In this document: in pieces, positions 7,889 through 39,722 of the stretch
How the letters are laid out: each line of letters starts with the position of its first letter
How positions within the stretch are numbered: position 1 is the first letter of the stretch
From: an uncultured bacterium
GTDB taxonomy: Bacteria > Fidelibacterota > Marinisomatia > Marinisomatales > UBA1611
Direction of reading: 5' to 3'
Assembly: GCA_943788175.1 (NCBI GenBank)
Contig: CALSPG010000009.1
Span: forward strand, 1-48,321
Length of the DNA stretch: 48,321 nt
Position numbers and translations under genes: made by a program
The notes under the pieces: generated by a model
Seen by the model: the letters and a program-made list of their open reading frames with translations, nothing else
The model's database searches: none
What the model was told of the DNA's origin: nothing

Positions 7889-9349
7889 ATGAATGAGACA
7901 AAAAGATTGATTTTTAAAGTCGATCGCTTAAAAAAGAACTATGGGTCGCTTGAAGCGGTCAATGTTAAAAAACTTGAAATCCATCCAGGTACTATCTATG
8001 CGCTAGTTGGTCCTCCAGGTTCTGGTAAAACCACTCTTCTAGATATATTATCTGGCTCACAAAAGCAATCTTCTGGTGAGCTTTATTTTGAGAATTCCGA
8101 ATATAAAACTAACTGGTTTGGCAAGGTCTTAAAACATGACGAGATTTTCTACAACTATGGTTTTGATGATTACGGTACTGGGTCTTCTGTTGGAAAGATT
8201 ATAAATAAAATGTATGGTAAGAAATCAAATACAATTATGAAAAGGCATTTTAATAGTCCTAGGTTCAAGCATCTATGGAATCGATCAGTCTCATCGCTTA
8301 CAAAAGGAGAGCTTCATTGGGTTGGAATGGTTCTTTCACTCGAAAGTGATCCAAGAGTGTTATTGATTGATGAATATGGTGTTCATATCACAAACAATAT
8401 GGAACAGGAGTTTAGAACGCAGCTTAGAAGAATGAATAGGACTTTGGGTACTACTATTATCCTTAGCACGCCAAATGAAGATTTAGTTAAAAATTTCGCT
8501 TCTGTTCTTATATTTATGGATAATGGTCATATTTCTAAAATTCGATCCAAATCAAACCGGATTGGTGGTCCTAGAAGACCTGGAAGAAGAGGCCATTTCA
8601 ATCATAAAAAAAAGAATACAAAGGCTAGAGGATCAAGCAATAAGCCCCCAGTTAATAAGCAAGGTGGTAAGTCAGATCAAAACTCTGGAAATTCGTCAAG
8701 AGGTTCAAGCAATAAGCCTCCAGTTAATAAGCAAGGTAGTAAGTCAGATCAAAACTCTGGAAATTCGTCAAGAGGATCAAGCAATAAGCCTCCAGTTAAT
8801 AAGCAAGGTAGTAAGTCAGATCAAAACTCTGGAAATTCGTCAAGAGGATCAAGCAATAAGCCTCCAGTTAATAAGCAAGGTAGTAAGTCAGATCAAAACT
8901 CTGGAAATTCGTCAAGAGGTTCAAGCAATAAGCCTCCAGTTAATAAGCAAGGTGGTAAATCAGATCAAAATTCTGAAAATTCGTCAAGAGGTTCAGTTAG
9001 TAGGCACTCAAGTAGTAAGCAAAATCCCGAATCAAATAATAGTCCTGAAAACAAATCAATAGACACTCACAATCGTAATCTTGAAACACCTTCTAATCCA
9101 AATCCGGTCTCATCAAATCCTAATTCAGGCAATGAGTCTATCAGTCTAGATATTCAAACTTCAGTAGGTAAAAATAGTGTATCAATTAGTAAGCCTCCCG
9201 CACCGTTAGAAACGCCGAAACCTTCGAACTCAGAAACTATCAAACCAAAGAATAAATCGAATAATGCAAATGCCAAAACATCGGCAAATGAAGAGGTCGT
9301 TGCAAAAAGAAGTAAATCTCAAAGCAAGGAACAAACTGAAAAAAGTTAA
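7889..9349 (+). CDS. degenerate ABC-type ATPase with long low-complexity C-terminal tail
   Basis: Walker A GPPGSGKT, Walker B VLLIDE, signature altered to LTKGE; about 260-aa S/N/K/G/P-rich tail; GGAGG RBS. Confidence 0.8.
   Translation: MNETKRLIFKVDRLKKNYGSLEAVNVKKLEIHPGTIYALVGPPGSGKTTLLDILSGSQKQSSGELYFENSEYKTNWFGKVLKHDEIFYNYGFDDYGTGSSVGKIINKMYGKKSNTIMKRHFNSPRFKHLWNRSVSSLTKGELHWVGMVLSLESDPRVLLIDEYGVHITNNMEQEFRTQLRRMNRTLGTTIILSTPNEDLVKNFASVLIFMDNGHISKIRSKSNRIGGPRRPGRRGHFNHKKKNTKARGSSNKPPVNKQGGKSDQNSGNSSRGSSNKPPVNKQGSKSDQNSGNSSRGSSNKPPVNKQGSKSDQNSGNSSRGSSNKPPVNKQGSKSDQNSGNSSRGSSNKPPVNKQGGKSDQNSENSSRGSVSRHSSSKQNPESNNSPENKSIDTHNRNLETPSNPNPVSSNPNSGNESISLDIQTSVGKNSVSISKPPAPLETPKPSNSETIKPKNKSNNANAKTSANEEVVAKRSKSQSKEQTEKS
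8627..8995 (+). repeat. in-frame tandem repeat, 5 x 72 bp plus 9 bp (RGSSNKPPVNKQG[GS]KSDQNS[GE]NSS)
   Basis: Units start at 8627, 8699, 8771, 8843, 8915; near-identical at DNA level; no spacers. Confidence 0.97.
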
Positions 9350-10332: not shown

Positions 10333-11973
10333 ATGGCTATAAATAAGAAATGCTGCTTTCATATAGGTCTATATTTCTTTTTATTTTTTGCTATCTCTTT
10401 TGCTCAACCTAGTGCTCGATATAGGCCTTTTGACTGGTTACTTTTCAAGGAACCTGGTAGAATTAATTCATTATCAGAGGGTTTTGAATTCTTATATGTG
10501 GGCACTAGTCATGGTGGTATTTATCGTTACAACTTGTACAGCAATCAATATGACTTTCCCATTACCTCGGCTCAAGGATTAAAAAGCAATAGTATCAGCA
10601 GTGTTCATTTTGATCAAAATACGGGTATCCTATGGGCTGCATCTGTAGGTGCGCTTCAGTATTCATTTACAAGAGAGGGAGACTGGCGATATATTGATTT
10701 TGTAGATATAGGTCTAAGGAATAATGATAATATTAGTCAGATTGGGAATTCTGAAAATTATGTTTGGGCAAAGGCAAACGCCGTTTACGTTAAATTAGAC
10801 AAATCTTCTGGCATATTAGCCGGAATTTATCCTAGGCCAGATGAAATAAATATTTCTTGGAGTAGTACCAACTATTATGAGCAAGCTGACATCGCTACTA
10901 TTATGAATAATTATGCTCTAATGTCTGGCTGGATGGCGTCTGGTTCAAAACTAATAGACGGCTATGGTAGATACATCGATATTACTAGTGGTTTAATTGG
11001 AAAACATAATGATGTTTGGATAGGAACTTCTGACGGTACACTTTTCCAAGGAGACAAGACGATGGAAGCAATCTTCCCAACAGAATTTGGTATTAGAGGT
11101 TCCAACATAAATGCATTGTTTCAAAATGAAAATAATCTTTGGATAGGATCAAAAGGCTATGATATTGGCAGGGGTGTGACGAGGTTAAATACCCGAAATT
11201 TTCAGACTGACCATTATGATTTTGATGTTACTGTGAATATGAACCTTACAGAGGTTTATTCATTCTATGATTTTGAAAATACTCTTTGGGTTGGAGGCAA
11301 TGGCGTCATTCTGGTTTTTGATAAGCCAGATAATTTTTGGCGCACACTGGGAGAAGATAGGGGTATACCAAATAGTGATATAACCTCTATGGTAGGAGAT
11401 TCTAATTATGTATGGATTGGGTCTTATTATGGTATAAGACAAATTAATCGAAAATCTAAAAGAGAAGAGCCAATGGGTTTTGAATATCTTTTTTATAATC
11501 ATCCTGTAAATGATTTATTATTAAATGAGTTTGGTGTCTGGGTTGCTTCTAGAACTGGAATATATCTTTATGATAAAAATAACCCGCAAATTATGAATGC
11601 GCTTTCAATAGGTAACTCTTATTTAGATTTTCCTGTTTCACGCGTCACTTCAATATTTCAAGATAACCAATTATTGTATTTTGCTACAAATATTGGCGTG
11701 GTTAGTTTTAATATTGAAGAGAAATTTTGGGATATGGTGATTCCAGCTTCTGATTATAGAGGACTGGATGTTTCTGATCTTATTGTGGTCGGTAAATTTT
11801 GCTTTATTGGAACTAGTCAGGGTATGTTTAGAATAAATTTAAAATCAAAAAGAACTAGAGAGTATAAATTTGACTTCATTGGGTCAGTCAATTCCTTAGA
11901 AAAAATAGGTAAATATGTTTGGATGGGAACTAGTGAAGGTCTAATTAGGTTTAAATGGAGAAAAGATTTATGA
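10333..11973 (+). CDS. exported multi-bladed beta-propeller protein
   Basis: Signal peptide; repeated [LV]W[IV]G[TS]xxG blade motifs along the whole length. Confidence 0.8.
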   Translation: MAINKKCCFHIGLYFFLFFAISFAQPSARYRPFDWLLFKEPGRINSLSEGFEFLYVGTSHGGIYRYNLYSNQYDFPITSAQGLKSNSISSVHFDQNTGILWAASVGALQYSFTREGDWRYIDFVDIGLRNNDNISQIGNSENYVWAKANAVYVKLDKSSGILAGIYPRPDEINISWSSTNYYEQADIATIMNNYALMSGWMASGSKLIDGYGRYIDITSGLIGKHNDVWIGTSDGTLFQGDKTMEAIFPTEFGIRGSNINALFQNENNLWIGSKGYDIGRGVTRLNTRNFQTDHYDFDVTVNMNLTEVYSFYDFENTLWVGGNGVILVFDKPDNFWRTLGEDRGIPNSDITSMVGDSNYVWIGSYYGIRQINRKSKREEPMGFEYLFYNHPVNDLLLNEFGVWVASRTGIYLYDKNNPQIMNALSIGNSYLDFPVSRVTSIFQDNQLLYFATNIGVVSFNIEEKFWDMVIPASDYRGLDVSDLIVVGKFCFIGTSQGMFRINLKSKRTREYKFDFIGSVNSLEKIGKYVWMGTSEGLIRFKWRKDL

Positions 11974-13226
11974 TGAAAAGAATATTATCAGGCATAATTG
12001 CAGCTCTTATTATATGCAGTTTTATTTCTGGACAGCGTTCAAAAAAAAATAAGTCTTTAAGTAATGTTGGAAGATATAATTTATTAGAATTTTCTAGAGC
12101 TATTTCAAAAGACTCAATCCTCGTGACAGCATTTGTGGATATTCCTTTTCGAAGTCTTCAATTTGTAAAAAAAAATAATTCATTTTTTGCTTCATATGAT
12201 GTTTCCATTGTTTTAAAAAACAATAAAGGTAAACGTATTTTTAGAAAAATGTGGACAGATTCGATAACCACTGATGATTACATTCAAACACAATCAAGAT
12301 TAAGGACTAGAAAACATTTTTCAAACTTTACAGTAGCAAAAAATAAATATGAAATAGAATCAGAGCTTTATGATAAAGACACAAGAAACAAGGGTTCTAA
12401 AAATATTAAAATTGATTTTTCAAAATTCAAAAAAAAACCATCCTTAATGGAGCCTCTTATTGTAGCAAACCTTGAAGGCGAATGGGGATTCGACGTTAAT
12501 GAATTCCCTATAACAGGTAAAAGGATAACAAACATTGATAGGGGTCTTACTTTGATTGTATCTGGGTTTGTTGATAGTGAGCCATATGAAGTTTTGGGTT
12601 TTATGGAAGGAATGAATGAAGATGGGAAGTTTCTTATATCAAAAAAAGATACTTCAGGTGGCTTTTTTAACCATAGATATAAATTAGATAAAAGTATATT
12701 ATCCACAATGGGACTTGAGATTGGAATTAAACTGATACAGTCAAATAAAGAAAGAGAAGTCATGAAAAAAATCTCTATTTATAAGCCTGGACTTTCAGGC
12801 TTCGTCAATAATGTAGAAACCTCTTTTCAGCAAATGAGATATCTTTTAACAACTAATGAAAGAAAAGAAGCAAAAGGCAAGAAAGGGGAGGCGCTGGAGA
12901 AAATATTTCTTGAGTTTTGGAATAAAAGAGATCCTACGCCAGAAACAAATATTAACGAACTAATGGAAGAGTATTATATCAGAGTTAATTATGTTAATGA
13001 ATATTTTAATATGTCTTGGAAGGAAGGTTGGGAAACTGATTTTGGAATGATATATATACTTTTCGGTCCTCCTGATGAAATTCAAAGGTCAAATGCCACC
13101 AGCACTAATACTTCGATTTATCAAGCCTGGTATTACAATAGGCTAAATAAACAGTTCGTTTTTAGAGACCAGAATGGGTTTGGAGATTTTAAGTTAGATA
13201 AGCCATTTATCGGGCCTAATTTTTAA
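11970..13226 (+). CDS. GWxTD domain-containing protein
   Basis: FWNKRDPTP..NELMEEYYIRV..EGWETDFGMIYILFGPPD; start moved to ATG 11970 (GGAG at 11957). Confidence 0.9.
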   Translation: MMKRILSGIIAALIICSFISGQRSKKNKSLSNVGRYNLLEFSRAISKDSILVTAFVDIPFRSLQFVKKNNSFFASYDVSIVLKNNKGKRIFRKMWTDSITTDDYIQTQSRLRTRKHFSNFTVAKNKYEIESELYDKDTRNKGSKNIKIDFSKFKKKPSLMEPLIVANLEGEWGFDVNEFPITGKRITNIDRGLTLIVSGFVDSEPYEVLGFMEGMNEDGKFLISKKDTSGGFFNHRYKLDKSILSTMGLEIGIKLIQSNKEREVMKKISIYKPGLSGFVNNVETSFQQMRYLLTTNERKEAKGKKGEALEKIFLEFWNKRDPTPETNINELMEEYYIRVNYVNEYFNMSWKEGWETDFGMIYILFGPPDEIQRSNATSTNTSIYQAWYYNRLNKQFVFRDQNGFGDFKLDKPFIGPNF

Positions 13227-24328: not shown

Positions 24329-25627
24329 ATGTCTTATATCAAAGATAGCGACCCCGAATTATATGATATTATCCAAAGAGAAGAGGAAAGAGAGCATAAT
24401 ACACTTGAACTTATAGCCTCCGAGAATTTTACGAGCCCGGCAATTTTAGAAGCTGCTGGAGGCATTATGACTAATAAGTATGCTGAAGGTTATCCTGGCA
24501 AAAGGTATTATGGCGGTTGTGTCCATGTAGATGAGGCTGAAAACTTAGCTGTTGATAGGCTTAAAAGCCTTTTTAAAGTTGAATATGGCAATGTTCAACC
24601 TCATTCAGGCTCTCAAGCGAATATGGCTGTTTTTATGACCTTTCTTTCCGTAGGAGATACAGTTATGGGCCTTGACTTAGCACATGGGGGACATCTAACT
24701 CATGGAAGCCCAGTTAATTTTTCAGGTCAGCTTTATAATTTTGTGAATTATCAGGTTGATAAAAATACTGGACGTGTAGATTTTGATAATGTAAGAGCGT
24801 TAGCTAGAGAGCATAAGCCTAAAATGATTATTTGCGGTGGTAGTGCTTATCCACGGTTTGTTGAATTTGAAATTTTTCATGAAATTGCAACTGAGATTGG
24901 TGCTTTTTTAATGGCAGACATTGCTCATCCTAGTGGTTTAATAGCTGCAGGCGTTCATCCTTCTCCAGTTCCATATTGCGATGTAATTACAAGTACTACT
25001 CATAAGACTTTAAGAGGCCCTAGGGGCGGAATTATCATGATGGGAAAAGATAAAGAGAACACCTGGGGGAAAATCGCTCCGAAATCTGGTAGAACAAAAA
25101 TGATATCAGAACTACTTGATTCAGCCGTAATGCCGGGTATGCAAGGTGGTCCATTAATGCATATAATTTCTGCAAAAGCTATTGCTTTTGGTGAAGCGAT
25201 TAAAGATGATTTCAAGGTTTATGCAAATAAAATTGTAGAAAATGCGAAGGTAATGGCTCAAGAGCTCATTGAAATGGACTACAATATTGTTTCTGGCGGT
25301 ACTGATACACATATAGTATTAATTGATTTAACAAATAAAAGTATATCAGGTAAAGCTGCAGAAAAAGCGTTAGAAAAAGCAGGGATTACAGTTAATAAAA
25401 ATATGGTGCCATTTGATCAACGTAGTCCTTTTATTACAAGTGGTATAAGGGTCGGTACGCCCGCAATTACTACAAGAAATATGGGTGCTCAAGAAATGAA
25501 AAAAGTAGCGCAATTGATTGATATGGTGATAAATAACCCCGATAGTGATGTTAACCTAAAAAAAGTAAAATCAAACGTTAAGGATCTTTGTGAATCATAT
25601 CCGATCTACAAAGAAATTTCGCATTAA
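24329..25627 (+). CDS. glyA: serine hydroxymethyltransferase
   Basis: [40 protein letters not shown]. Confidence 0.98.
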
Positions 25628-26492
25628 AGGATTATTTTACTTATTATTTATCTTATTTTTTAGTTCTTGCAGCCCTACGGTCTATGTCTTGGACAAAACT
25701 CCTAAAGTTGCTGGGCATTTATACAAAAAAACCGCTCTTAATAAAGTTCAAAAAAAATTAAAAAAAGATCCTAATAATATTGATTACAAGATTGAGGGAG
25801 TTGAAACTTTAACTACCTATGCGTTCGGCTTTTTAATTGAACTATCTGATCGTTTAATGTTGGAAAATTATTCAAAAGCGAAAACTTTTGAATTGGAAGC
25901 TCATCAGTACTTTGAGAATGCTGTTTCTTACGGTGATTCTTCAATTAGTTATCTTTATAATAATTATTATAAGTGGTTGTGCGACGACACAAACTCAAGT
26001 ACTGATAATATACCAAGCGTTGATATTGAAAATAGTGACTTGGAATTATTATACTGGACTGCTGCTGCCTATGGAGGTGCAATAAGCTCTAGTAGTGGAA
26101 ATCCTGAGTGGATTATAAAACTGCCTAGAGTTGGGAAGTTATTATATTCTATAGTCGCTTTAGATCCCAATTGGAATAATGGTGCTGCGTTGGTTGCCTT
26201 AATAACATATTCAATGAACAACCCATTGATGACTTCAGAAGAAGCAGATTCTGTTTCAAAACATTTATTTGAATCTGCTGTAAAAGCATCTAATGGAAAG
26301 GATATGACTCCTTATATTACCTTTGCGGAATCAGTCTCAAAGACCAGGCAAAACAGAGATGAATTTGTCTATTTATTAAATGAAGCATTAAAAATAAACA
26401 CAAAATCTGCCAAACAATTTCAACTGACAAATACAATAAATAAAAATAGAGCTGAGTGGCTCCTGGATAATATTGATGAATTTTTTTATTAA
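25590..26492 (+). CDS. TRAP transporter TatT component lipoprotein
   Basis: Lipobox [32 protein letters not shown] motifs; upstream of dctP; GTG start with AAGGA, overlapping glyA by 38 bp. Confidence 0.82.
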
Positions 26493-26508
26493 AAAAAGGT
26501 TACATGGT

Positions 26509-27510
26509 ATGAATAAGGTTATAATATATATATCAATTTTGTTAATGTTCACTGAGTTCTCTTTTGCTAGAAAGACAATTATCAAGATGGCAACATTAGC
26601 GCCTGAAGGTACTCCCTGGTACTCACTGATTGCAAAAATGGGGGAGCGTTGGACAGAAGAAACGAATGGCAATGTAAGGTTGAGAATCTATCCCGGAGGC
26701 ATTGTCGGCGATGAGCGTGATATGATAAGAAAAATGAAAATCGGTCAAATTCATGGTGCAGCTATTTCAGCTGAGGGCTTAACAGAAATAAACCCACAAT
26801 ATACTTATTGTTTTATTCCATTGCTTTTTCAAGAGTATGGAGATATAGACTATATAAGAAACGAAATCAAAGATGATTTAATAAGTGGTGCGGAAAAAAA
26901 TGGGGTCAAAGTTTTGACCATGGTAGATGTTGGATGGGTGTATTGGTTTACTAAAAATCCTATTTTTACACCTGAAGATTTAAAATCTCAGAAAATTTGG
27001 ACTTGGGCAGGTGATTATAAAACTGCAAAATTATATGATGAGGCTGGTTTTAATGCAGTGCCGCTTGCAGTCCCAGATGTACATTCTAGTCTACAAACGG
27101 GACTTGTAAACGCTATGCCATTTCCACCTTTATATGTTGCAGCAAATCAATATTTTGGTATTACACAAAACATGTTAAATATGAAATGGGGTATTCTAAC
27201 AGCAGCTCTAGTGATAGATTTAAAAATGTGGAATAGGATAAAACCAAAATATCAAAAGGCTATGCTAAAAGTTTCTGAAGAGACTGGTATAGAATACCAG
27301 CTAAACAATCGAAAAGAAGAAGACGAGGCAGTTGAGGTTATGAAAGAATATGGGTTGAAAGTTAATAACTTAAACCAAGACCAAGTTGACGAATGGAACG
27401 AATTAGTTGAATCAATGTACCCACTAATTAGAGGTAATATAGTTCAGGAAGAAATTTTTGATAGAGTAATGGATTTAAAAAGTGGCATGCCTTCAATGAA
27501 AAAAAAATAA
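26509..27510 (+). CDS. dctP: TRAP substrate-binding protein (DctP/TatP type)
   Basis: KMATLAPEGTPW, YPGGIVGDE, SLQTGLV; start moved to ATG 26509. Confidence 0.92.
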   Translation: MNKVIIYISILLMFTEFSFARKTIIKMATLAPEGTPWYSLIAKMGERWTEETNGNVRLRIYPGGIVGDERDMIRKMKIGQIHGAAISAEGLTEINPQYTYCFIPLLFQEYGDIDYIRNEIKDDLISGAEKNGVKVLTMVDVGWVYWFTKNPIFTPEDLKSQKIWTWAGDYKTAKLYDEAGFNAVPLAVPDVHSSLQTGLVNAMPFPPLYVAANQYFGITQNMLNMKWGILTAALVIDLKMWNRIKPKYQKAMLKVSEETGIEYQLNNRKEEDEAVEVMKEYGLKVNNLNQDQVDEWNELVESMYPLIRGNIVQEEIFDRVMDLKSGMPSMKKK

Positions 27511-27519
27511 AAATCAATA

Positions 27520-29328
27520 GTGAAGATTACCAATAAAATAGAAAATTATATTGCTTGTACTATTTTTATCTTTTTGGTGGCCCTTCCATTCTCAGACTTA
27601 CTCATTCGAGAAATAATCCGTCCTTTTTTTACTGAATTTTCAAAAATACCAGCCTCGCAAACTCTTGTTTCGCATTTAACATTATTAATTGGCTTTAGTG
27701 GCGCAATAATAGCATCTAGACAGAATAAATTATTATCTTTATCAAATAGCTCATTATTTGATGCTCAACAAAATGGTTTTTTTGTCCATATATCAAGATG
27801 GGTATCGATATTTATAACATTTTTATTAATTGTTGGCAGTGCGGATTTAGTTTTAGTCGAACTATCATTTCAAAATCCTGCGTTCGTTGCTCCTAACTTA
27901 CCCCGATGGCTTTTTCAATCTGCGATACCAGCTGGGTTTTTTATTATTTTGATGCATTTATTACTCAAGATGAAAAGAAATATTTTTTCTTTTGGAGGAC
28001 TTATAACAATGCTTTTTATAATTGTTTTTTTGACTTCTCAGGACTCGATTAGAGAAAATTCATTTATACTAATGTTAAGTTCTTTTTTGCTTCTTTTATC
28101 AATTATTAAAGGAGCTCCAATATTTATAGTTTTATCTGGGTTTGGTATTCTGTTTTTCTGGTACGACTATGTTCCTATATCTGCAGTGATTGCTGAATCA
28201 TATCGGATAGTTGTGTCACCTCATTTAGCAACCATACCATTATTTACATTAGCCGGTTACTTTTTAGCTGAAAGTAAAGCTTCTGATAGGCTTATAAATG
28301 TTTTTAAAGCATCATTTGGATGGATGCCTGGTGGTACTCCGGTAATTGTACTTCTTATTTGTGGGTTTTTCACGGCTCTTACTGGGGGATCTGGCGTTAC
28401 TATTCTTGCTTTAGGTGGGCTTCTTTTTCCAATGCTATCAAAAGATGGTTATCGTAAAAACTTTTCTTTAGGATTAATTACTGCTTCTGGTTCAATCGGA
28501 CTACTTTTTCCTCCTAGTTTGCCCCTTATTCTTTATGGCGTGACGGCTGGGATATCAATAAAAAGTATATTTTTAGCAGGTATAATGCCTGGAATATTTT
28601 TAATAATTATTTTATCTGTTTGGTCTTATTTATCTGGAGCGGTAAAAGGAAATAAGAAAGAAATATTTAATGCTAGAAATGCCTTAGAAAGTTGTTGGGC
28701 GACTAAATGGGAATTATTTATTCCACTAATAGTACTTTATGGCATTTTTGGTGGACATGCTAAACTTGTAGAAACTGCTGCCTTTACCGTCGTTTATGTA
28801 TTTGTTGTTGAAACATTTATCTATAAAGATTTAAAGCTTCGAGAAATTCCATCAATTATAGTTTCATGTGCTACTTTGGTTGGTGGTGTATTAATCATTA
28901 TTGGTTCAGCTATGGGGCTTACTAGTTATATGGTAGATGCGCAGATTCCAATGACTATACTAGCATTCATGAAAGATATAGTCCATTCAAAATACCTTTT
29001 CCTTATCCTCTTAAACATCTTTCTTTTAATAATAGGCTGTTTAATGGATATTTTCAGTGCAATTATTATTGTTGTTCCGCTTATTGCACCATTAGGTATA
29101 CATTACGGTATAGATCCAATTCATTTAGCTATCATATTTATAGCAAACCTTGAGCTTGGGTACTTAACTCCTCCAGTTGGTATGAATTTGTTCTTATCAG
29201 CCTATAGATTTGAAGAAAAGATGCCGGTTATATATAAATCAACATTACCGTACTTTATCGTTCTTTTAATTGCTGTTCTTGTAATTACGTATTTTCCGCC
29301 TTTGACTCTTTGGCTCGTTAATCAGTAG
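27520..29328 (+). CDS. dctM: fused TRAP small+large permease (DctQM)
   Basis: IPLFTLAG, GSIGLLFPPS, TPPVGMNLF; extra ~170-aa hydrophobic N-terminal part. Confidence 0.92.
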   Translation: MKITNKIENYIACTIFIFLVALPFSDLLIREIIRPFFTEFSKIPASQTLVSHLTLLIGFSGAIIASRQNKLLSLSNSSLFDAQQNGFFVHISRWVSIFITFLLIVGSADLVLVELSFQNPAFVAPNLPRWLFQSAIPAGFFIILMHLLLKMKRNIFSFGGLITMLFIIVFLTSQDSIRENSFILMLSSFLLLLSIIKGAPIFIVLSGFGILFFWYDYVPISAVIAESYRIVVSPHLATIPLFTLAGYFLAESKASDRLINVFKASFGWMPGGTPVIVLLICGFFTALTGGSGVTILALGGLLFPMLSKDGYRKNFSLGLITASGSIGLLFPPSLPLILYGVTAGISIKSIFLAGIMPGIFLIIILSVWSYLSGAVKGNKKEIFNARNALESCWATKWELFIPLIVLYGIFGGHAKLVETAAFTVVYVFVVETFIYKDLKLREIPSIIVSCATLVGGVLIIIGSAMGLTSYMVDAQIPMTILAFMKDIVHSKYLFLILLNIFLLIIGCLMDIFSAIIIVVPLIAPLGIHYGIDPIHLAIIFIANLELGYLTPPVGMNLFLSAYRFEEKMPVIYKSTLPYFIVLLIAVLVITYFPPLTLWLVNQ

Positions 29329-29349: not shown

Positions 29350-29379
29350 TTGACAGAACGTTGGTTGATTGAATATATT
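29350..29379 (+). promoter_or_regulatory. sigma70-type promoter of the porV-like operon
   Basis: TTGACA (29350-29355)-N18-TATATT (29374-29379). Confidence 0.6.
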
Positions 29380-29482
29380 CACTGTCCAATAATCAGGAGT
29401 ACTATTATTAAATAAACGCTATTTTTATCCTCATAAAATGAGGTCACATAATATTAAATTTACATTATCTAGGAGACTTCCA

Positions 29483-30835
29483 ATGAAGCGTTTTATCACT
29501 GTACTATTTGTACTTCAAATTTTTATTAATATTTTACCAGCTCAGAGCGAAGCTGGAGCAATTTTTCTTTTAATTGCGCCTGGTGCTAGAGCTGGCGGAA
29601 TGGGTGAAGCGCAGGTCGCCGTTGCTGATGATGCCTATGCTAGTTATTGGAATCCTGCAGGGCTTGGGTTTTTAAAAGGATCTGAAACAGCATTAATGCA
29701 CGTTAACTGGCTTCCTGGGTTAGCAGATGATATGTATTATGAGTTTTTAGGCTTTAGAAAGCATTATGATAAACTTGGTACTCTTGGTGGACATGTTATT
29801 TTTTTAAATTTAGGGGAGCAAGTTAGAACGAGTGAAATAGGCGAAGAATTAGGTACTTTTACTAGTTATATGACTGCTTTTTCACTTTCATATGGAGCTT
29901 TAATATCTGAAAAAAAATCATTCGGTATTAATGCAAAAATTTCTTATCAACATCTTGTGGAGATAGGGGCAGGAAGTGAAAAAGGAAAAGGAACTTCGCT
30001 AGACTTTGGTTTTGACTTTGGCTATTTACACAAGGACTGGTTAATCGATGATTTAACTTTTGGTTTTAACTTGTCAAATATTGGACCAAAAGTATCTTTT
30101 ATCGATCCCGACCAAGCTGATCCTCAGCCTACCAATCTAACCTTAGGGTTTAACTATGGTCTCGTTAAATCTGAATTTAACAAATTAAATATTGTCTATG
30201 ATGTTGACAAACTTCTCGTTGCTTCTTATCCTGATATGGATTGGGATGATAACGGGTATATAGGTGGATATGATGAGGATGGTAATCAGAGCCCTGGGAA
30301 TGATTACAATAAAGAAGGGCAAATAGAAATTGCTCATACAGATCCAATTTACTTAGCATTGTTTACTTCTTGGGTTGATGATTGGTTCCTCGGTGGGGAT
30401 ATTGATAAAGCAGTTTCAGGAGAATATGGTGATAAAGTAATTGGTGGTTGGAATTGGGATGAGTCAATGGATGTAAATGGTAATAATGAGCCGGACGCAA
30501 ATGAGATGGTGCAAACCGGTAATATAAACCCAGGTGATGATGGTTGGGGTACATATAATGAATGGGGCCAGAAAGAAGTTGGTAATAGTGATGATCGAAG
30601 TTTATCGGATGAGTTAGATAAATTGGTCCATAATTTTGGATTAGAATACTGGTATGGCGAATATTTTGCTATAAGAACTGGTTATTACTATGATAAAACT
30701 GGAAAAATTAGTAACCCTACTTTTGGAATTGGCCTTCGATTTGCTGGTTACGGTTTTGATTTTGGATACACTTACGGAGAACCAGGACACCCATTAACGA
30801 ATACTATGAGATTTTCACTTAATATGGAATATTAG
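29483..30835 (+). CDS. PorV/PorQ-family outer-membrane barrel with acidic insertion
   Basis: FLLIAPGARAGGMGEA..YWNPAGL, NIGPK, FAIRTGY, LTNTMRFSL; start ATG 29483 with AGGAG. Confidence 0.88.
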   Translation: MKRFITVLFVLQIFINILPAQSEAGAIFLLIAPGARAGGMGEAQVAVADDAYASYWNPAGLGFLKGSETALMHVNWLPGLADDMYYEFLGFRKHYDKLGTLGGHVIFLNLGEQVRTSEIGEELGTFTSYMTAFSLSYGALISEKKSFGINAKISYQHLVEIGAGSEKGKGTSLDFGFDFGYLHKDWLIDDLTFGFNLSNIGPKVSFIDPDQADPQPTNLTLGFNYGLVKSEFNKLNIVYDVDKLLVASYPDMDWDDNGYIGGYDEDGNQSPGNDYNKEGQIEIAHTDPIYLALFTSWVDDWFLGGDIDKAVSGEYGDKVIGGWNWDESMDVNGNNEPDANEMVQTGNINPGDDGWGTYNEWGQKEVGNSDDRSLSDELDKLVHNFGLEYWYGEYFAIRTGYYYDKTGKISNPTFGIGLRFAGYGFDFGYTYGEPGHPLTNTMRFSLNMEY

Positions 30836-30843
30836 TTTTTCTT

Positions 30844-33627
30844 GTGAAACTCAGTTTTTTTAAAAGTCTGATCATTCCGGTAGTCAGCTTAAACTTCTTT
30901 ATTAATGCAGAAATTATTGGTGACCTTAAGGTTTGTGCTTTAATGGTAGAATTTCAAGTCGATTCCACAGAGAGCACAACGGGTGATGGTACATTTCTTC
31001 AATCAATAGAGGGTATAGATTGCGATTTATATCACATAGATGCTCCTCCTCATAACAATAGTTACTTTCATTCTCAACTTAAAGCGACAAACAACTATTT
31101 TAGATCTTCTTCATATGGAAAATTTGGTTTAGATATGGTTTCAAGTAGCATTATGCCTTTAAATAATTCTACCTATACGTTACCTAATGAAATGTCTTAT
31201 TATTATCCATACAATCAAGACAGTTTAGCTGAAGTGAGATTAGTGGAACTTTATGAACAATCTTTACGCGTTGCTTATGCTATTGATGAAATAGATTTCT
31301 CTAACTATGATTTAGTTTTAGTATTCCATGCTGGTATAGGTCAAGACTTTTCATTACCATTTTTAGACCCAACTCCTGAAGATATTCCTTCTACTTTTAT
31401 TGATTCTGAAATGATTGAATTAGCTACAGGTACCATTGGCATTGCCATTGGAAATACAGTCCTAAGTAAAGGTATAATTCTTCCTGAATCCCAAAACCAT
31501 TTAAATTTTGATATTTCCAGCTCGATGTTTGCTGGTGAGCCAGATCCTTGTGATTATCAATTTGGTTTAAATGGAACACTCTCGCTAATGATTGGATTTG
31601 CTATAGGTCTTCCTCCATTGTGGGATATTGAAAATGGTAAGAGTAGAATTGGAGTTTTTGGATTGATGGACCAAGGTTCTAATAATGGCAGGGGTTTAAT
31701 ACCTTCTCCTCCAGATCCCTGGTCAAGAGTCTATGCAGGTTGGGAGACTCCTAACACTATATCATCAAGTTCTCAGGTATCATTGCCTAAGAGAAGCGAA
31801 AATAATTTAATCAAAGTTGATATAAACGAATTTGAATATTTTATGATTGAAAATCGTAACAATCATTTTAAACCAGGAATAAGCATAGATTCAATAAGAT
31901 ACAAAATGTATCAAGATACCAATAATTACCCCTCATTTATTAAAAGCTTAGTTGACTCTGTAGAAATTGAAAAAGATGAAAATGGTGTTCTTGTTAAACT
32001 CCCTAATTATGATTTAGGTCTTCCTGCATCAGGTTTACTTATTTGGCACATTGATGAAAGAATAATCAGTACAGGTATTAATTCATATGAGATTAATAAA
32101 GACCTAAACCGACTAGGTGTGGATTTAGAGGAATCTGATGGTGCTCAGGACATAGGATTTGATTCGTTTTTTATGTTTGATGACCCCTCAGCTGGTTATT
32201 TTGGAGATATGTGGTTTGCAGAAAACCAAGAATACTATAGGGCAAATCCTCAAAACGAGGGTCTTTTGCCGGTATTTAATTCACAAACCTATCCTAATAC
32301 AAATTCAAATGATGGTTCAAATAGTTATTTCTCTTTTGAAAATATTAGTTCTGCTAAAGATACAATCTCTTTTAGTGTTTATAACTTTTTAAAACCATAT
32401 GGTTTTAGAGATACTAGTTCTTTTTACAGATTGGGGATTAGGCCTGAGGGCTTCGAAAATAATATTATAGTTGGAGGTATTGATTCAATCTGGTTTATAT
32501 CAAATTTTGGTAATACTTCAAAAAAATATTTTCATAAAATAAATTCAAACGAGTTGACTATTGGATTTTCAAAAGTAAATGATGATTTCTATTTAGAGAT
32601 TTTTGAATATAATGGCAATAGCACTTCAAAAATAAATTATAAGTTTTCTGATTCTTTTGAAAAACTAGAATTTTCTAGTTTGTTAAATTTTGATTCGTTG
32701 ATATATCCTATTTATAGTGATGATTTTTCAAGTGTTTCTTATTTAAATAAAAAACAATGGGATTCGCATAAAAATAGTGTGTTTGATAAAAACTATTCAT
32801 ACGCGTTGGACAGGGATAATGGATATCTATTTAGTTATAGAGCTGATAACATAGAAAATTTGTTTATCGATGATATATCGACTGCTTCTTTAATTGGTAT
32901 TGACATTTCATTAAATGCTAGGTTGAATGCTTTAGTCGTTGGTAATGGTGGTTCCATAACAGCATATGATAACAGTCTCCATGTAATGGCTGGGTTTCCT
33001 TTAAATAAAAAATCCTCTGGTAAAGTATTAGCAAAAGATATACTCGGTAATGATTATCCTGAAATCATTGTTAAATCTTTAGATTCGAGTAAAATTTTTA
33101 TTTTTGATTACAAAGGAGTTCTTTTACAATCTATTTCTAGTTCAAAAAATGATGATATAATGTTTCTTCATACAATTAATCAAAAAAACCATCTTTTTAC
33201 TAAATATAGTGTTTTTGTTTTTGATGAAGAAATTAATGATAGTGGTAATAGTTGGGCTAATTTAAATGGTGACATTAGAAACTCAAGAAAATTAGAATTA
33301 AACTATAGTCCTACATCTAATAGTAATGATTTGATTTTAAGAGCATATTGCTATCCAAATCCGATCAAGTATGTATCGAACTCTAAGATTAGAGTTGAAA
33401 CATATGATGCTAAAAGTATTGCCTTAAAGGTTTATGATTCAAATGGGATATTTGTGGATGAATTTTCAAATTATATTCAATCTGAGGGAACTCAAATATC
33501 AGAATGGAACTTCGATATTACAAATCTCGAATCAGGTATCTATTTTGGTCACTTGGATGTCAAACCAATGGAGTCCAGTGGTACAAAAAATGCTCAAACA
33601 TTAATTAAAATTGCAGTTATAAAATGA
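30844..33627 (+). CDS. M6 (immune inhibitor A)-like protein lacking zinc ligands, with T9SS type A-like C-terminal domain
   Basis: SYGK, FHAG, GLMDQGS, EYFMIENR, GLLIWHID, DLEESDG M6 motifs; YPNP..VYD..G..SGIYF..KIAVIK tail. Confidence 0.8.
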   Translation: MKLSFFKSLIIPVVSLNFFINAEIIGDLKVCALMVEFQVDSTESTTGDGTFLQSIEGIDCDLYHIDAPPHNNSYFHSQLKATNNYFRSSSYGKFGLDMVSSSIMPLNNSTYTLPNEMSYYYPYNQDSLAEVRLVELYEQSLRVAYAIDEIDFSNYDLVLVFHAGIGQDFSLPFLDPTPEDIPSTFIDSEMIELATGTIGIAIGNTVLSKGIILPESQNHLNFDISSSMFAGEPDPCDYQFGLNGTLSLMIGFAIGLPPLWDIENGKSRIGVFGLMDQGSNNGRGLIPSPPDPWSRVYAGWETPNTISSSSQVSLPKRSENNLIKVDINEFEYFMIENRNNHFKPGISIDSIRYKMYQDTNNYPSFIKSLVDSVEIEKDENGVLVKLPNYDLGLPASGLLIWHIDERIISTGINSYEINKDLNRLGVDLEESDGAQDIGFDSFFMFDDPSAGYFGDMWFAENQEYYRANPQNEGLLPVFNSQTYPNTNSNDGSNSYFSFENISSAKDTISFSVYNFLKPYGFRDTSSFYRLGIRPEGFENNIIVGGIDSIWFISNFGNTSKKYFHKINSNELTIGFSKVNDDFYLEIFEYNGNSTSKINYKFSDSFEKLEFSSLLNFDSLIYPIYSDDFSSVSYLNKKQWDSHKNSVFDKNYSYALDRDNGYLFSYRADNIENLFIDDISTASLIGIDISLNARLNALVVGNGGSITAYDNSLHVMAGFPLNKKSSGKVLAKDILGNDYPEIIVKSLDSSKIFIFDYKGVLLQSISSSKNDDIMFLHTINQKNHLFTKYSVFVFDEEINDSGNSWANLNGDIRNSRKLELNYSPTSNSNDLILRAYCYPNPIKYVSNSKIRVETYDAKSIALKVYDSNGIFVDEFSNYIQSEGTQISEWNFDITNLESGIYFGHLDVKPMESSGTKNAQTLIKIAVIK

Positions 33628-36575
33628 TATTCATTCTATCTGTTATTTTTGCTTTTCAAGCTACTTTGAATGGCCAAGCGAAGTATAACCATCCAGAGCT
33701 AAATTGGTATACTTTTGAAACCGAAAATTTTAAAATACATTATCACGAAGAGACTGAGATTTCTGCAAGAGAGGCGGCTACTGTTGCTGAGGTGGTTTTC
33801 CCTAAAATAACTTCATTTTATGACTTTTCCCCTGAAAGTAAAACAGATATAATATTAAAAGATACTGATGACTACTCCAATGGAGCGGCTTATTACTATG
33901 ATAATAAAATTGTTATTTGGGCGACTCCTTTAAACTTTGAGTTAAGAGGTAGTCATAGGTGGTTACAGAATGTCATTACCCATGAATTTGCTCATATTGT
34001 CTCACTGCAAAAATCAATGAAAATGGGTAATAAAATTCCCGGGGCTTATTTACAGTTTATGGGGTTTGAAAAAGAAAAAAGAAAAGATGTTTTGTACGGT
34101 TTCCCAAATAGGCTGGTGAGTTACCCTATTCCAGCAACAGTTGTTCCCCCTTGGCTAGCTGAGGGGTCTGCGCAGTATATGTATGATGGTGCTGATTGGG
34201 ATCATTGGGACACTCACAGGGATATGATTTTGAGAGATAGAGCGCTTAACGATAAACTACTTTCATTTAATGAAATGAATACGTTTGGTAAAAAAGGTAT
34301 TGGTAATGAATCAACTTATAATTCTGGGTTCGCTCTTTCTAGATATATAGCTTATAAATACGGTTCAAATGTTATTAAAGATGTGATGCAAGAACTGTCA
34401 AACCCTTTACAGTATTCAATAAATGATGCCTTTTATAATGTTATAGATGTTGATGGGGAAGTCATTTATAATGACTTCATCTTGACACTTAAAGAAAGAT
34501 ATGAAAAACTTTCAAGTCCCATTGACGTAAATAAGACAACACCAAATATTATTGCAGGTAAAGGTACAACAAATATGTTTCCGGTATGGGCTCCCGACAC
34601 TAATGTTTTTGCATATCTAAGCAATAAGGGAAATGACTTTTTTGGGCAAACAGATCTATATATTTTAAATTTAGATGATAATAATGAAAAAAAGATTTCG
34701 GGATCTGTTTACTCTGCTCCAACATGGCATCCAGATGGATTGCATATTTATTATAGTAAAAAGCCTATGTTCCCAGATAAAAATGGGTCTAGATACTATG
34801 ATATTTATGAATACAATCTATCTTCAGAAAAAGAAAAAAGACTTACGAATGGTGCAAGGTCTATTTCTCCCGTCTTTATTAAATCTGATAGTAGTATTGC
34901 ATTTATTGCAACAAAAGATGGAGCGCAGGATATTTATATTTACGATTTGAAGAATAAAGAAATAATTCAGATTACTGATTTTAATAATAGGCCCATTATT
35001 AGTAGTCTGAATTTTAACAAATATGACAATAGTCTCTATTTCGATATATCAACACATCATTACAGGGATATAGGAAAAATTTCGTTGAATGATACAACGT
35101 TTAATATGGTGCTTAGTAATGATTTATGGGATGAGCGTAATATCACTTTTAGTAATAATGGTTCTGTTATATATGCTGATGATAAAAGTGGGATTTTTAA
35201 TCTTTATCTAATCGATGAGAAAAATAAAAAACAAGGTTATGTGACAAACGTTCTTGGTGGTGCCTTTATGCCAAGTATGAACCAAAATGGAAGGTTAATA
35301 TACTCGCTATATCACGATGGTGCGTATAAAATTGCATTGATCGATACACTGGCAATAATTGAGGATGATTTAGTTGGCTATGCAAACAACTATTATCAAA
35401 AAAATGCAAACCTAACTGCTCCTATTACTAAGCTTGATACATCAGAGGCTCACAAGTATGTAGATCAATTTCCAAACATGTTTTTAATGCCAAAATTAAT
35501 GTATGAATATGGTACCGCTAAGCCAGGGTTTTATTTTTATTCAAGTGAGATTTTAGAGAGGTTAAGTTTATTTGGAGGTATGTCACTAAATAGTCGAATG
35601 GATGCAGACTTGTTCTTCATTTTTGAGTTTAATCGGTTTTACCCAACAGTCTTCTTTGAAACGTTTTACCTCACACGAAATACTTCAGATCGGACTAGAT
35701 ATCAAGACATTTATGAAATAGATAGTGATATTAAATTTAGAATGCTCCTTTTTCGCCCTGGAATAAAATTTCCTTTATATGGTAGCACTATCGAAATATT
35801 TAGTTCGTTTCAACGATACAGAGCATTTGTTAAAGAATCACTGCCTATGGAGAATATCGAAGCAGGAGTAGCCTACGATTACTACAAGGGGATTTCATTG
35901 AATTTCGATTGGAAATTAAATGTAATTAAACCTCGACTTGACGGAAGTATAAATCCGTCAAATGGCTTTATTTTAGCTGCAAAACTAGATTTTGAAAAAA
36001 ATAATTTTATTGATGGTCTTGATTTGTCAGATGCTGGCACATTGGTTGAAGATTTTAAAAATAATGATTTAACTCGTGTTCAGGGTGAATTAACCTATCA
36101 TTATGAAATACCTTGGGTCGAGAGATTAACAACGAGTCTGCACTTGAGTGGTGGATATATGTCAAATGCAAAAGTTGATTCATTCTTTCATTTTTTTAAT
36201 GGCGGTATGAGCGGTCTTAAAGGTTATCCTTTTTATGGTATTGAAGGAACAAAATCTGCTTTGATTGATTTAACTGTAAGGCTTCCCATTTTTCGTGAAG
36301 AGCATATAAAATTAGGTTGGTTTATTATGCAGAATAGTGTCTTGGGAGCAGTTTTTCAAATCGGTGATGCTTGGAGAGAAAAAAATGATCAAATGTGGAA
36401 AAAATCTATTGGTCTTCAATGGCGTATTAATGGTTTCTCATTTTATAATTATCCAACAGCAATTGAATTAGAAATTCATAGAGGCTTAACTAAATTTGAA
36501 AGAGTAATAAAAGGAGATTCATACTCTTATGGTAAAGAAAACAGAACATATTTTAAATTATTATTTGATTTTTAA
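33624..36575 (+). CDS. zinc peptidase (MA-like) + PD40/TolB-like propeller + Omp85-like beta-barrel
   Basis: THEFAH and WLAEGSAQY; PVWAPD and PTWHPDG repeats; PSNG, GG..GLKGY; C-terminal F. Confidence 0.8.
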   Translation: MIFILSVIFAFQATLNGQAKYNHPELNWYTFETENFKIHYHEETEISAREAATVAEVVFPKITSFYDFSPESKTDIILKDTDDYSNGAAYYYDNKIVIWATPLNFELRGSHRWLQNVITHEFAHIVSLQKSMKMGNKIPGAYLQFMGFEKEKRKDVLYGFPNRLVSYPIPATVVPPWLAEGSAQYMYDGADWDHWDTHRDMILRDRALNDKLLSFNEMNTFGKKGIGNESTYNSGFALSRYIAYKYGSNVIKDVMQELSNPLQYSINDAFYNVIDVDGEVIYNDFILTLKERYEKLSSPIDVNKTTPNIIAGKGTTNMFPVWAPDTNVFAYLSNKGNDFFGQTDLYILNLDDNNEKKISGSVYSAPTWHPDGLHIYYSKKPMFPDKNGSRYYDIYEYNLSSEKEKRLTNGARSISPVFIKSDSSIAFIATKDGAQDIYIYDLKNKEIIQITDFNNRPIISSLNFNKYDNSLYFDISTHHYRDIGKISLNDTTFNMVLSNDLWDERNITFSNNGSVIYADDKSGIFNLYLIDEKNKKQGYVTNVLGGAFMPSMNQNGRLIYSLYHDGAYKIALIDTLAIIEDDLVGYANNYYQKNANLTAPITKLDTSEAHKYVDQFPNMFLMPKLMYEYGTAKPGFYFYSSEILERLSLFGGMSLNSRMDADLFFIFEFNRFYPTVFFETFYLTRNTSDRTRYQDIYEIDSDIKFRMLLFRPGIKFPLYGSTIEIFSSFQRYRAFVKESLPMENIEAGVAYDYYKGISLNFDWKLNVIKPRLDGSINPSNGFILAAKLDFEKNNFIDGLDLSDAGTLVEDFKNNDLTRVQGELTYHYEIPWVERLTTSLHLSGGYMSNAKVDSFFHFFNGGMSGLKGYPFYGIEGTKSALIDLTVRLPIFREEHIKLGWFIMQNSVLGAVFQIGDAWREKNDQMWKKSIGLQWRINGFSFYNYPTAIELEIHRGLTKFERVIKGDSYSYGKENRTYFKLLFDF

Positions 36576-37455
36576 ATTAGCGTTATTGACAGTTTTAATA
36601 ATGCCTATCGCTGGGCAAGATACTTCGAAAGTAATTGTTAAAAACGATTCTACTTTTTATCCAGGTAAGCCACTAATAATGTCCTTATTGATACCAGGAT
36701 TAGGCCAGGTTTATAATAAGGAACCGCTCTGGAAACCAAGTCTTTTTATAGCGACTGAAATAGTCAGTATTACAAGCATATTTTACGCAAACAAAAAAGC
36801 AGATGAAATTAGACTTGATTACCAAAAGTTTGCGGATGAGAATTGGAATATTCAAAATTGGTGGAACTTTACTCAATCAGGACCTACAACAGTTGAAAAC
36901 AACGGACTATATTTTACGGATAATAAATTAAAGGCAATGAGAGATTATGTAGGTACACATCATCTAACTGTTCACCTAAAGGGTGATCTCGTCAACTTAT
37001 TTAATACGGAATTTTTAACATCAGATAGTCTTTCCCTCTTGTCTAGTTATCTTGATAGCGATGATGTTACAATGGTTAAAGATAGGCACTATTACGAAAA
37101 TATTGGCAAGTATGATCAGTTCGTTGGAGGTTGGTCTGATGTCGCTACTGATTGGTATTGGGAAGAAAAAGATGTTGGTGATAGTACTGAGATCGTTATT
37201 AAAACACCTAATAAACAAAGTTATCTTGATGAGCGTTATAAATCAAATCAATGGTTATCTTTTGCTAAATTTAGTGTGAGCGCAATGATGTTTAATCATG
37301 TAATAAGCGGGTTAGAAGCTGTCTACGCTAACAGAATTAATAAAAACAATAAAACTCGAAAGGATTCTAAGGATATTAACCTTGATTTAGGCTTGTTATT
37401 TAATCCAAGTAACAAGACTGGTATAGGTGGTTTGTCCTTTAGACTTAATTTTTAA
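36529..37455 (+). CDS. DUF5683-like membrane protein
   Basis: SLLIPGLGQVYN, YYENIGKYDQFVGGW, NHVISGLEA, terminal strand LSFRLNF; start uncertain (36529 or 36565). Confidence 0.65.
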   Translation: MVKKTEHILNYYLIFKLALLTVLIMPIAGQDTSKVIVKNDSTFYPGKPLIMSLLIPGLGQVYNKEPLWKPSLFIATEIVSITSIFYANKKADEIRLDYQKFADENWNIQNWWNFTQSGPTTVENNGLYFTDNKLKAMRDYVGTHHLTVHLKGDLVNLFNTEFLTSDSLSLLSSYLDSDDVTMVKDRHYYENIGKYDQFVGGWSDVATDWYWEEKDVGDSTEIVIKTPNKQSYLDERYKSNQWLSFAKFSVSAMMFNHVISGLEAVYANRINKNNKTRKDSKDINLDLGLLFNPSNKTGIGGLSFRLNF

Positions 37456-37456
37456 A

Positions 37457-38188
37457 ATGAAATATCTTAGCTTTATATTAGTTATCTTTGTTGGTTGTTC
37501 ATCTAGCTTACTCGATGAGTCAATTCCTCTAGCTGACCGCCTCAAAATCGGAATGGATTTATTAGATCAAGAAAAGTTTGTAAAAGCTCAGGGTGAGTTT
37601 AAATATGTTTTATCAAGGGGAACGGGGACTGACTACGGGGACGATGCTCAGTTTTTTCTAGCTGAATCTTATTTTTTGAATCAAGAATATATGTTGTCAA
37701 TACAAGAATATGAAAATTTGACGAGAAAAATGGCCTTTAGCCCATATTTTGAAAAGTCTAGATTTAGAATATGTGAAGCATATAGGATTGAAAGTCCAAA
37801 TTATTACAATGATCAATCTTATACTGAAAAAGCATTGGAAAGATATCGTGAGTTTCTAGATGATTTTCCTGAATCCGAGAATAGTCAGGTTGTAACAGAA
37901 TCGATGAATGTATTAAGAAATAAACTAGCAAAAAAATTATATGAAACAGGGATTTTATATATGAAAATGGATGAGTTTGAGCCTGCAAGAATGTCTTTTA
38001 ATGCCGTGATTGATCAATATTATGATACGGATATTATTGAAAAAGTTCATTTTGAGGTTATTAAGTCCTATGCAAAAGAAGGTAATTCTCTGAAAGCTGA
38101 AAAGCATTGGGTTGACAAGGGACAATCATACATATCAAATGAAGAAATTATTAATGAAATAACTGAACTCTTTTCTACTAAAGAATAA
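37457..38188 (+). CDS. bamD: outer membrane protein assembly factor BamD
   Basis: Lipobox FVGC from ATG 37457; DDAQFFLAESYF, DQSYTEKA..F...FP.S, LAKKLYETG.LY, YYDT. Confidence 0.88.
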   Translation: MKYLSFILVIFVGCSSSLLDESIPLADRLKIGMDLLDQEKFVKAQGEFKYVLSRGTGTDYGDDAQFFLAESYFLNQEYMLSIQEYENLTRKMAFSPYFEKSRFRICEAYRIESPNYYNDQSYTEKALERYREFLDDFPESENSQVVTESMNVLRNKLAKKLYETGILYMKMDEFEPARMSFNAVIDQYYDTDIIEKVHFEVIKSYAKEGNSLKAEKHWVDKGQSYISNEEIINEITELFSTKE

Positions 38189-38780: not shown

Positions 38781-39722
38781 CTATCCAGAAAAATCTAGAT
38801 ACCATCTTACAAGGTTTATTGAAACTAGTATAGTTCCTTGTAATCGGCTTATCTGCCAGTTTGTTCTCATCATAATTAATACCATTGCAACCATTACAAT
38901 TAAAACTACAATGCTTGAGTGAATATCAGATTGAATATTAGTTGGATTTATAATACCTGCAAGTCCAAGCACTCCAAGTAAATTAAATAAATCGCTACCA
39001 ATAAGGTTACCAATTGCCATTCCGTGCTTATTTTTGAATGCTGCTGTTAATGATGTAGCTAGCTCTGGAGCAGAGGTACCTGCAGCAACGATAGTTACAG
39101 CAATTACCCAATCTGAAACCCCAAAAGTGCTTGCAAGTGAGGAAGCGTGTTCAACCATTAAGTGGCCACCAAGGACAATAGAAATGAGCCCTGCAAAAAA
39201 CCATAAATATGATTTTAAATCTGCAGACTCAGGGTGTGTTTCCTCCATTGGTTCTTTTTTAATAAATAAGAAAATAATATACCCTATTAATGCAAGAAAA
39301 AGAAAAGACCCTTCTGCTGCGGTTATCGCATCAGTTATATCCCAGCCATTGAAACCAAAGAATAAAACATAAATCAATATTGTAACAAACAGTAAGAATA
39401 TGCCATCTCTATACAATAATTTCGGTGTAATGGTGATTGCACGCACCATCGCGGTGCCACCAAGAATAAATCCTAAATTAAAGATGTTAGAGCCAACAAC
39501 ATTGCCTATTGATATATCGGTTTGACCTGTTAATGCGGCTTTAATGGTTACTGCGAATTCTGGAGCAGATGTACCAAAAGCAACAACAGTTAATCCTATT
39601 ACTAAATCAGAAATTTTTAATGAATGAGCTATCTCAGCAGCCGCTTCAACAAGCCAATCTGCTCCTTTCCATAACATTAGTATAGAAAAAATGACTAAAA
39701 CTATGTCCAGTAATAAAATCAA
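38781..39722 (-). CDS. calcium/sodium antiporter (CaCA, YrbG-like)
   Basis: Duplicated GTSAPE..GN..GS alpha-repeats. Confidence 0.95.
   Translation of the reverse strand: MILLLDIVLVIFSILMLWKGADWLVEAAAEIAHSLKISDLVIGLTVVAFGTSAPEFAVTIKAALTGQTDISIGNVVGSNIFNLGFILGGTAMVRAITITPKLLYRDGIFLLFVTILIYVLFFGFNGWDITDAITAAEGSFLFLALIGYIIFLFIKKEPMEETHPESADLKSYLWFFAGLISIVLGGHLMVEHASSLASTFGVSDWVIAVTIVAAGTSAPELATSLTAAFKNKHGMAIGNLIGSDLFNLLGVLGLAGIINPTNIQSDIHSSIVVLIVMVAMVLIMMRTNWQISRLQGTILVSINLVRWYLDFSG

Follow-up and report, generated by a model that had tools for sequence, protein, structure and literature searches.

A cassette of three genes that lies directly behind porV in an uncultured member of the Marinisomatota (SAR406) probably assists the attachment step of the T9SS, the one carried out by the PorU sortase, in FCB lineages in which no genes for GldM and GldN were found. 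The cassette encodes a putatively dead M6-type metalloprotease (M6i), a fusion of peptidase, propeller and Omp85 barrel (PPB) and a DUF5683 protein; M6i and PPB are shorthand labels coined in this analysis. The cassette shares an inherited operon with porV and, outside the Marinisomatota, also with porU, and its presence follows that of the PorU sortase and not that of BAM. This proposal draws on the anatomy of the three proteins, on this linkage, and on loss of the cassette together with PorU in genomes that retain SprA, PorV and BamD.

T9SS work has been described in Bacteroidota species equipped with a motor and ring. The Marinisomatota carry SprA, PorV, PorU and many cargo proteins, with no match to GldM (no control genome passed the cut-off). 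In this setting the cassette offers three conserved candidate subunits linked to the sortase step, together with two natural deletion lineages, and PPB represents an Omp85 architecture with an apparently intact protease. The parts are of known kinds, and the M6i family has already been named in NCBIfam; the cassette itself is apparently undescribed, no account of it having been found in the literature searched, where most subscription journals lie outside the coverage. The suspicion of novelty raised in an earlier note, made from the DNA alone, has to that extent been borne out.

The window, i.e. the whole stretch of 48,321 nucleotides that was analysed, contains the following features:

29350..29379, + strand: promoter-like site TTGACA-18-TATATT, 11/12 match, in the gap before porV
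29483..30835 (the ORF also opens at 29438), + strand: porV, 450 aa from 29483
30844..33627, + strand: M6i, putatively dead M6-type metalloprotease domain and type A-like CTD
33624..36575, + strand: PPB, zinc peptidase, TolB-like propeller and Omp85 barrel (predicted)
36529..37455, + strand: DUF5683 gene (PF18935)
37427..38188, + strand: bamD lipoprotein gene (TIGR03302)

The ORF listing of the window confirmed the five genes in the interval first given, all on the + strand and overlapping or closely packed, and the families to which they were originally assigned hold in Pfam and NCBIfam profile scores. The porV start at 29483, the one chosen at first reading, has AGGAG just 5' of it. Of the suggestion that one promoter serves the run, the site itself stands: TTGACA-18-TATATT falls within the 109-bp gap 5' of porV and ties for the top score. 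Promoter-like sites in the region are at chance level (66 found, 67.9 expected), and a single promoter is therefore plausible at most. The co-directional run continues past bamD, with nadD starting 2 bases after it. Directly 5' of porV (window 25590-29328) lie genes for a TRAP-T transporter (TatT, DctP and a fused DctQM), which are kept in many close relatives and swapped out in others, and the gene after nadD (window 38781-39722) is inverted here and in two close relatives, L042 and L044, when compared with most of the phylum. Further away, an ABC-ATPase-like ORF (window 7889-9349) contains several near-identical tandem repeats of ~25 aa in its C-terminal half; the frame 8523-9062, which overlaps it, is likewise repetitive.

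The first gene, initially described as PorV-like, encodes a true orthologue of PorV, the shuttle barrel of the T9SS. Its product scores 81 bits against PF19572 and 242 bits against NF033709 (cut-off 90); the best equivalog is PorV (183 of 250, the match being split by an insertion), and orthologues at the equivalent position in L104 and L122 exceed the PorV equivalog cut-off. In a PDB sequence search its sole match was 6h3i_F, a chain named PorV (E 2e-25); an identity as BamG was ruled out on this result. Of the genome's 14 matches to the PorV family it ranks first. In an alignment, about residues 243-373 stand out as a long inserted loop, which is gone in genus g5; a short form of it is present in G018, also without PorU.

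Other PorV-family genes are arranged variously. In L073:2550-5894, PorV is contained in an ORF of 1115 aa, far longer than the other orthologues, and G018, the PorU-less genome, has 21 PorV-family matches. In the genome studied here (G000), a large receptor-like gene, a gene for a large divergent-CTD protein and, directly after, a PorV-family paralogue recur as triads (G000:C7:84329-91478, C5:487517-494580, C5:524848-536792 and C5:36776-44779); the receptor gene of the C7 triad has TonB-dependent receptor matches. By their arrangement the triads look like cognate cargo-shuttle pairs. Pairing of cargo with shuttle is known for CTDs of type B with PorP/SprF.

The earlier note had raised the possibility that the machine is not the canonical T9SS. 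An inventory of T9SS core genes found SprA, PorU, a PorZ-like protein and CTD cargo in the genome, and the system is therefore a T9SS rather than a separate machine; porU moreover precedes porV outside the phylum. SprA scores 587 bits (cut-off 200) and is over cut-off in 26/26 relatives, PorU scores 584 bits against NF033707 (cut-off 420), the PorZ-like protein gives a full-length match of 148 bits, below the cut-off of 260, and there are 81 TIGR04183 matches representing CTD cargo. All are encoded on contigs other than that of the window, such that the reported absence of sprA and porU is correct for the window and does not extend to the genome, which has both. GldN was not found in this genome, nor GldM here or in any of the 26 relatives, searches in which no control genome passed the cut-off. 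A PorZ-like protein of 775-850 aa occurs in 16/16 genomes with the module and is absent from G067 and G018. M6i as a replacement for PorZ was ruled out, as the full-length PorZ-like gene is present; a hint of a PorZ propeller at window 11767-11976 is weak (E 0.055) and crosses stop codons.

In P. gingivalis, as set out in the accessible part of PMC12365241, PorU cleaves the CTD and adds LPS that PorZ delivers, and the motor is proposed to free cargo from PorV; PorV itself seems to be used again (accessible part of PMC12618676). The present system shares with the PorQ-PorU-PorV-PorZ complex of that species a true PorV, PorU, a PorZ-like protein and PorQ/PorV-family genes, and the two are alike in a subunit, here a predicted one, that sits at the surface and bears a PorU-type CTD, porU and porV being adjacent outside this phylum. 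It differs in the addition of the dead M6 protease, the peptidase-propeller-Omp85 fusion and the DUF5683 protein, and in that GldM and GldN were not found (with the same caveat on controls); none of the at least 18 P. gingivalis components listed in the accessible part of PMC12365241 could be matched to M6i, PPB or DUF5683.

As assembled, the sprA gene of this genome (G000:C7:328028-334338, L001) has its frame broken twice close to the start, reflecting either assembly error or decay; in nearly all of the 26 relatives it is a single open frame of 2000-2300 aa. It is followed (G000:C7:336098-340009, L210) by a gene whose 701-aa product carries a PorZ/PorU-like CTD and then by two PorV/PorQ-family barrel genes.

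M6i belongs to the NCBIfam family NF052323, 'T9SS-dependent M6-like inactivated metalloprotease', which is an existing name for proteins of this type; the family has a name alone, no account of its partners, operon or function having been found. The window protein scores 369 bits, below the cut-off of 600 that its orthologues in L104, L122 and L157 exceed. An M6-type domain at about residues 23-515 is followed by a poorly conserved middle and the C-terminal type A-like CTD. HExxH occurs at the zinc site in 0/110 orthologues and the surrounding scaffold is strongly conserved, from which M6i is predicted to be catalytically dead, and its original description as a dead protease with a CTD has stood up. 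The family profile matches the CTD of PorU in the PDB (6za2, E 1.7e-5), the only thing returned for M6i by PDB sequence searches. With a profile of the M6i CTD, built without the window protein and three close relatives, PorU ranks second among the 83 tails of this genome. P. gingivalis PorU and PorZ retain their CTDs (accessible part of PMC11285876). Since the CTD of M6i is PorU-like, and those of PorU and PorZ stay uncut, M6i would by analogy be a resident surface subunit, not ordinary cargo.

PPB matches Peptidase_MA_2 and PD40 in Pfam; the Pfam Omp85 profile misses it, matching 4/29 of its distant orthologues, and the barrel was established by structure alone. An AlphaFold2 model from a 72-sequence alignment (pLDDT 93.7, pTM 0.90; the single-sequence fold reached pLDDT 28) comprises a peptidase at about residues 25-302, a TolB-like beta-propeller at 308-573 and an Omp85 barrel at 620-980, with 16 strands in the secondary structure of the model and an LKGY motif in loop 6; no POTRA domain is present in it. 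In a wide structure search the model matched BamA (Z 23.2, rmsd 4.3, 320 aligned), TolB (Z 23.1), TamA (21.6) and FhaC (21.3), and Foldseek on the whole model returned propeller matches only. As modelled, PPB is a genuine member of the Omp85 superfamily, with the same 16-stranded barrel and loop-6 motif as BamA, TamA and FhaC (Z 21-23). From these it differs in carrying a peptidase and a propeller instead of POTRA domains, and in being dispensable in some genomes. Its zinc site, HExxH...E (H120, E121, H124 and E180), is invariant in 68/68 sequences, which argues for an intact, gluzincin-like zinc metallopeptidase of clan MA, in agreement with the peptidase-bearing Omp85 protein first proposed.

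Several barrel-only structure targets aligned from residue 136-139 of the PPB model, ranges that suggest that the root of a peptidase hairpin lies at the barrel mouth; the peptidase would be located on the periplasmic side. Covariation between the hairpin (about 140-170) and the barrel, in 376 sequences (effective 250), gave a few pairs near the seam and was dominated by relatedness, and a co-fold of the barrel (605-983) with the DUF5683 protein (42-308) scored 0.00 against a mark of 0.32, with controls not folded; neither counts as evidence for or against contact. PPB paralogues with HExxH are encoded at G000:C5:85665-88577 and C5:130641-133833, the latter stopping early and being followed by a short Omp85 fragment; one paralogue family survives even in the ~1-Mb genomes of g5.

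The product of the DUF5683 gene scores 35 bits against PF18935 (cut-off 26.7); its profile is unrelated to that of PPB, and PDB sequence searches gave no match for it. It has a signal-like N-terminus, a short hydrophobic PGxGQ segment and, according to alignments and hydropathy, a conserved YENIGKY insert flanked by two hydrophobic stretches, and its last residue is F or W in 58/68. This layout is similar to that of LptT, a helical protein of the outer membrane that belongs to the LPS translocon of Bacteroidota and occurs in six of the seven remaining FCB phyla, as described in the accessible part of 10.64898/2026.10.03.756453; the comparison was by written description only, and the resemblance is a lead only. 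The genome encodes four further DUF5683-like proteins, one of which could be the LptT counterpart. In several clades a second, divergent DUF5683 gene comes after the first (L116, L126, L127, L133, L134, L143, L146, L155, L157, L159, L169, L175, L180, L181 and L103).

The likeness to LptT bears on a rather improbable reading in which the cassette would supply the acceptor for attachment: PPB would trim and export a lipid-linked anchor with the help of an LptT-like DUF5683 protein, and M6i would present it to PorU. Such a role would fit the co-loss with PorU detailed below, as well as the lptG-lptF-like genes found behind the cassette in L110 and loci like it; that link is, however, on the opposite strand and confined to a single clade, and a full-length PorZ-like protein is already present, PorZ being the known LPS-delivery subunit.

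Gene order in the Marinisomatota is highly conserved, with porV-M6i-PPB-DUF5683-bamD-nadD found in 57/60 loci (picked from 140 M6i-positive genomes); the other three are cut by contig ends and none is rearranged. Synteny within the phylum is by itself weak evidence, because nadD is linked as tightly as the five genes. A metagenome scan provided 517 confirmed stretches, the best 80 of which were kept; 10 of these were set aside as Marinisomatota by score, neighbours and tree, leaving 70 loci, with counts made over loci with enough flank and identities checked on examples. Among these best 80 of 517, the usual order is porU-porV-cassette: M6i is upstream of PPB in 48/54 loci, porV is upstream in 31/36, porU precedes porV in 22/29, the DUF5683 gene is downstream of PPB in 50/58, and sprA is within 10 kb in 14/70. 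Flanking genes differ between clades; the cassette is constant. M6i is missing upstream in six loci, all from one clade; there PPB stands head-to-head with sprA and has neither M6i nor DUF5683 beside it, a second T9SS context for PPB; a neighbour protein in one of these loci is named Ignavibacteria. Names in other loci include Thermokryptus (the L122 neighbour cluster) and 'Bacteroidota bacterium' (L119, L160 and L161), and there are PPB proteins named Electryonea and Rhodothermales. The conserved gene order on which the original proposal depended thus exists inside the phylum and, for the cassette, outside it. Outside the Marinisomatota, synteny covers porV-M6i-PPB-DUF5683 and leaves out bamD, which is adjacent in 0/48 loci (among the best 80 of 517).

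BamD had been cast as the partner of the Omp85 protein, a role that is not supported. The bamD product (TIGR03302, 94.6 bits, cut-off 81.4) is the only BamD-grade match in the genome, the canonical bamA sits on another contig, and bamD stays where PPB is deleted; it is a housekeeping neighbour outside the cassette. The proposal of a five-part T9SS/BAM-related machine apart from the canonical T9SS, with BamD partnering PPB, is accordingly largely refuted and must be considered highly improbable. The adjacency of all five genes in the phylum and a genuine Omp85 protein in PPB are both in its favour; set against these are the separation of bamD from the cassette outside the phylum, its retention without PPB, the lack of a POTRA domain in PPB, and the location of bamA, sprA and porU elsewhere in the genome. 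The unit is instead the three genes behind porV.

Searching the PDB with the M6i, PPB and DUF5683 profiles yielded no BAM accessory chain. The expanded BAM of Bacteroidota is BamADGHMP, and SprA has been noted across the FCB group (accessible part of PMC12611786). That complex and the LPS translocon are likewise outer-membrane machines of the FCB group that have been enlarged, by additional barrels, by subunits at the surface and by a helical protein; here, in contrast to the BAM described in the accessible part of PMC12611786, the barrel is PorV, not BamG, and the BAM subunits named there differ.

Losses of the cassette connect it to PorU. A strong M6i match was found in 140/151 genomes; the 11 negatives (nine genomes of genus g5, G018 and G149) are also without a PPB orthologue and the DUF5683 gene of the module. 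PorU was detected at E<=1e-60 in 136/151 genomes, with five misses among the M6i-positive genomes, four having a short PorU and one a fragmented PorU (G123 has PorU fragments only), and the C25 domain is absent from the nine g5 genomes and G018. M6i and PorU therefore occur together in 140/151, neither is present in 10, and PorU alone is found in one, G149, where BamD is missing too, which points to a probable assembly gap. SprA is kept in 26/26 genomes tested and PorV-family genes in 13/13, and 4-8 CTD matches remain in five tested PorU-less genomes. In g5 the order is dctM-porV-bamD-nadD in 5/5 loci fetched (of nine genomes), with porV abutting bamD. In G018 the contiguous locus is without the four genes, and porV is elsewhere in the genome; G151, of the same genus, lacks PorU and PPB, and both genomes of the sister genus have PorU and PPB. 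Two independent losses of the cassette with PorU were thus seen, in which SprA, PorV and BamD were retained: SprA can do without the cassette, whose presence is bound up with that of PorU. The g5 genomes are streamlined (about 1 Mb; G018 has 4.4 Mb), and chance co-loss is possible there because ~1-Mb genomes shed many genes together; co-loss also gives no direction of dependence.

These deletions bear, too, on whether three unrelated envelope genes have simply been held behind porV by operon inertia. Conservation in the phylum extends to neighbours including nadD, ftsEX and dnaJ, as inertia would have it, yet the flanks vary between clades and the cassette stays, and its three genes are deleted as a block together with the unlinked porU; a purely historical linkage is very improbable.

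Symmetric co-loss would equally arise if the cassette were a client of the T9SS devoted to feeding, in which PorU-anchored M6i captures peptides at the surface for import and digestion by PPB, the cassette being lost with PorU since display of M6i fails. A dead protease cleft and a peptidase-bearing barrel would suit peptide uptake, and HExxH PPB paralogues occur without T9SS neighbours. A client would be expected to be patchy, yet the cassette is present in 140/141 PorU-positive genomes and in clades far apart (among the best 80 of 517) is part of the porU-porV operon, and the CTD of M6i is nearer to that of PorU than to those of ordinary cargo; a client is unlikely on this evidence.

An accessory of the PorU step remains our preferred reading, and several observations count against it. 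Only two independent losses were seen; PorU of P. gingivalis works without matched cassette parts (accessible part of PMC12365241); G149 has PorU without the cassette, and G123 has fragments of PorU only; PPB-like paralogues exist outside the cassette (two here and one in g5); PPB is alone in the sprA-adjacent clade; and the short-loop PorV is kept in PorU-less G018.

For an accessory of PorU, a mechanism of peptide disposal can be tentatively outlined. M6i would be exported by SprA, retain its PorU-type CTD, and take its place next to PorU on PorV, where it would bind peptides without catalysis, collecting the CTD or linker peptides cut by PorU and handing them to the barrel of PPB. The zinc peptidase of PPB, gated by the propeller, would degrade them on the periplasmic side, and the DUF5683 protein would be a helical outer-membrane partner at the lateral seam of the barrel, by analogy with LptT on LptD. 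As a result PorV would be freed for another round and amino acids recovered. The main alternative, which fits almost as well and is only slightly less probable, is that the same parts act during assembly, in the maturation or proof-reading of PorU, PorV or PorZ. Extending disposal to the whole cycle is speculative and improbable: in FCB lineages without the GldLM motor, the T9SS would reset PorV by a proteolytic ratchet, running from M6i through an inward Omp85 barrel to the fused peptidase, with a helical gate protein. If true, this would constitute a new use of Omp85, peptide import coupled to degradation, and a partial answer to how a motor-less T9SS is cycled. A member of the phylum, Fidelibacter multiformis, has been cultured (accessible part of PMC11652737), and pull-downs are therefore feasible.

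PorU itself varies in length within the sampled genomes. In L204-L207 (G027, G087, G047 and G134) it is shortened to about 840-855 aa, with the N-terminal part missing, and a similar short PorU is found in other genomes of families f12-f15.
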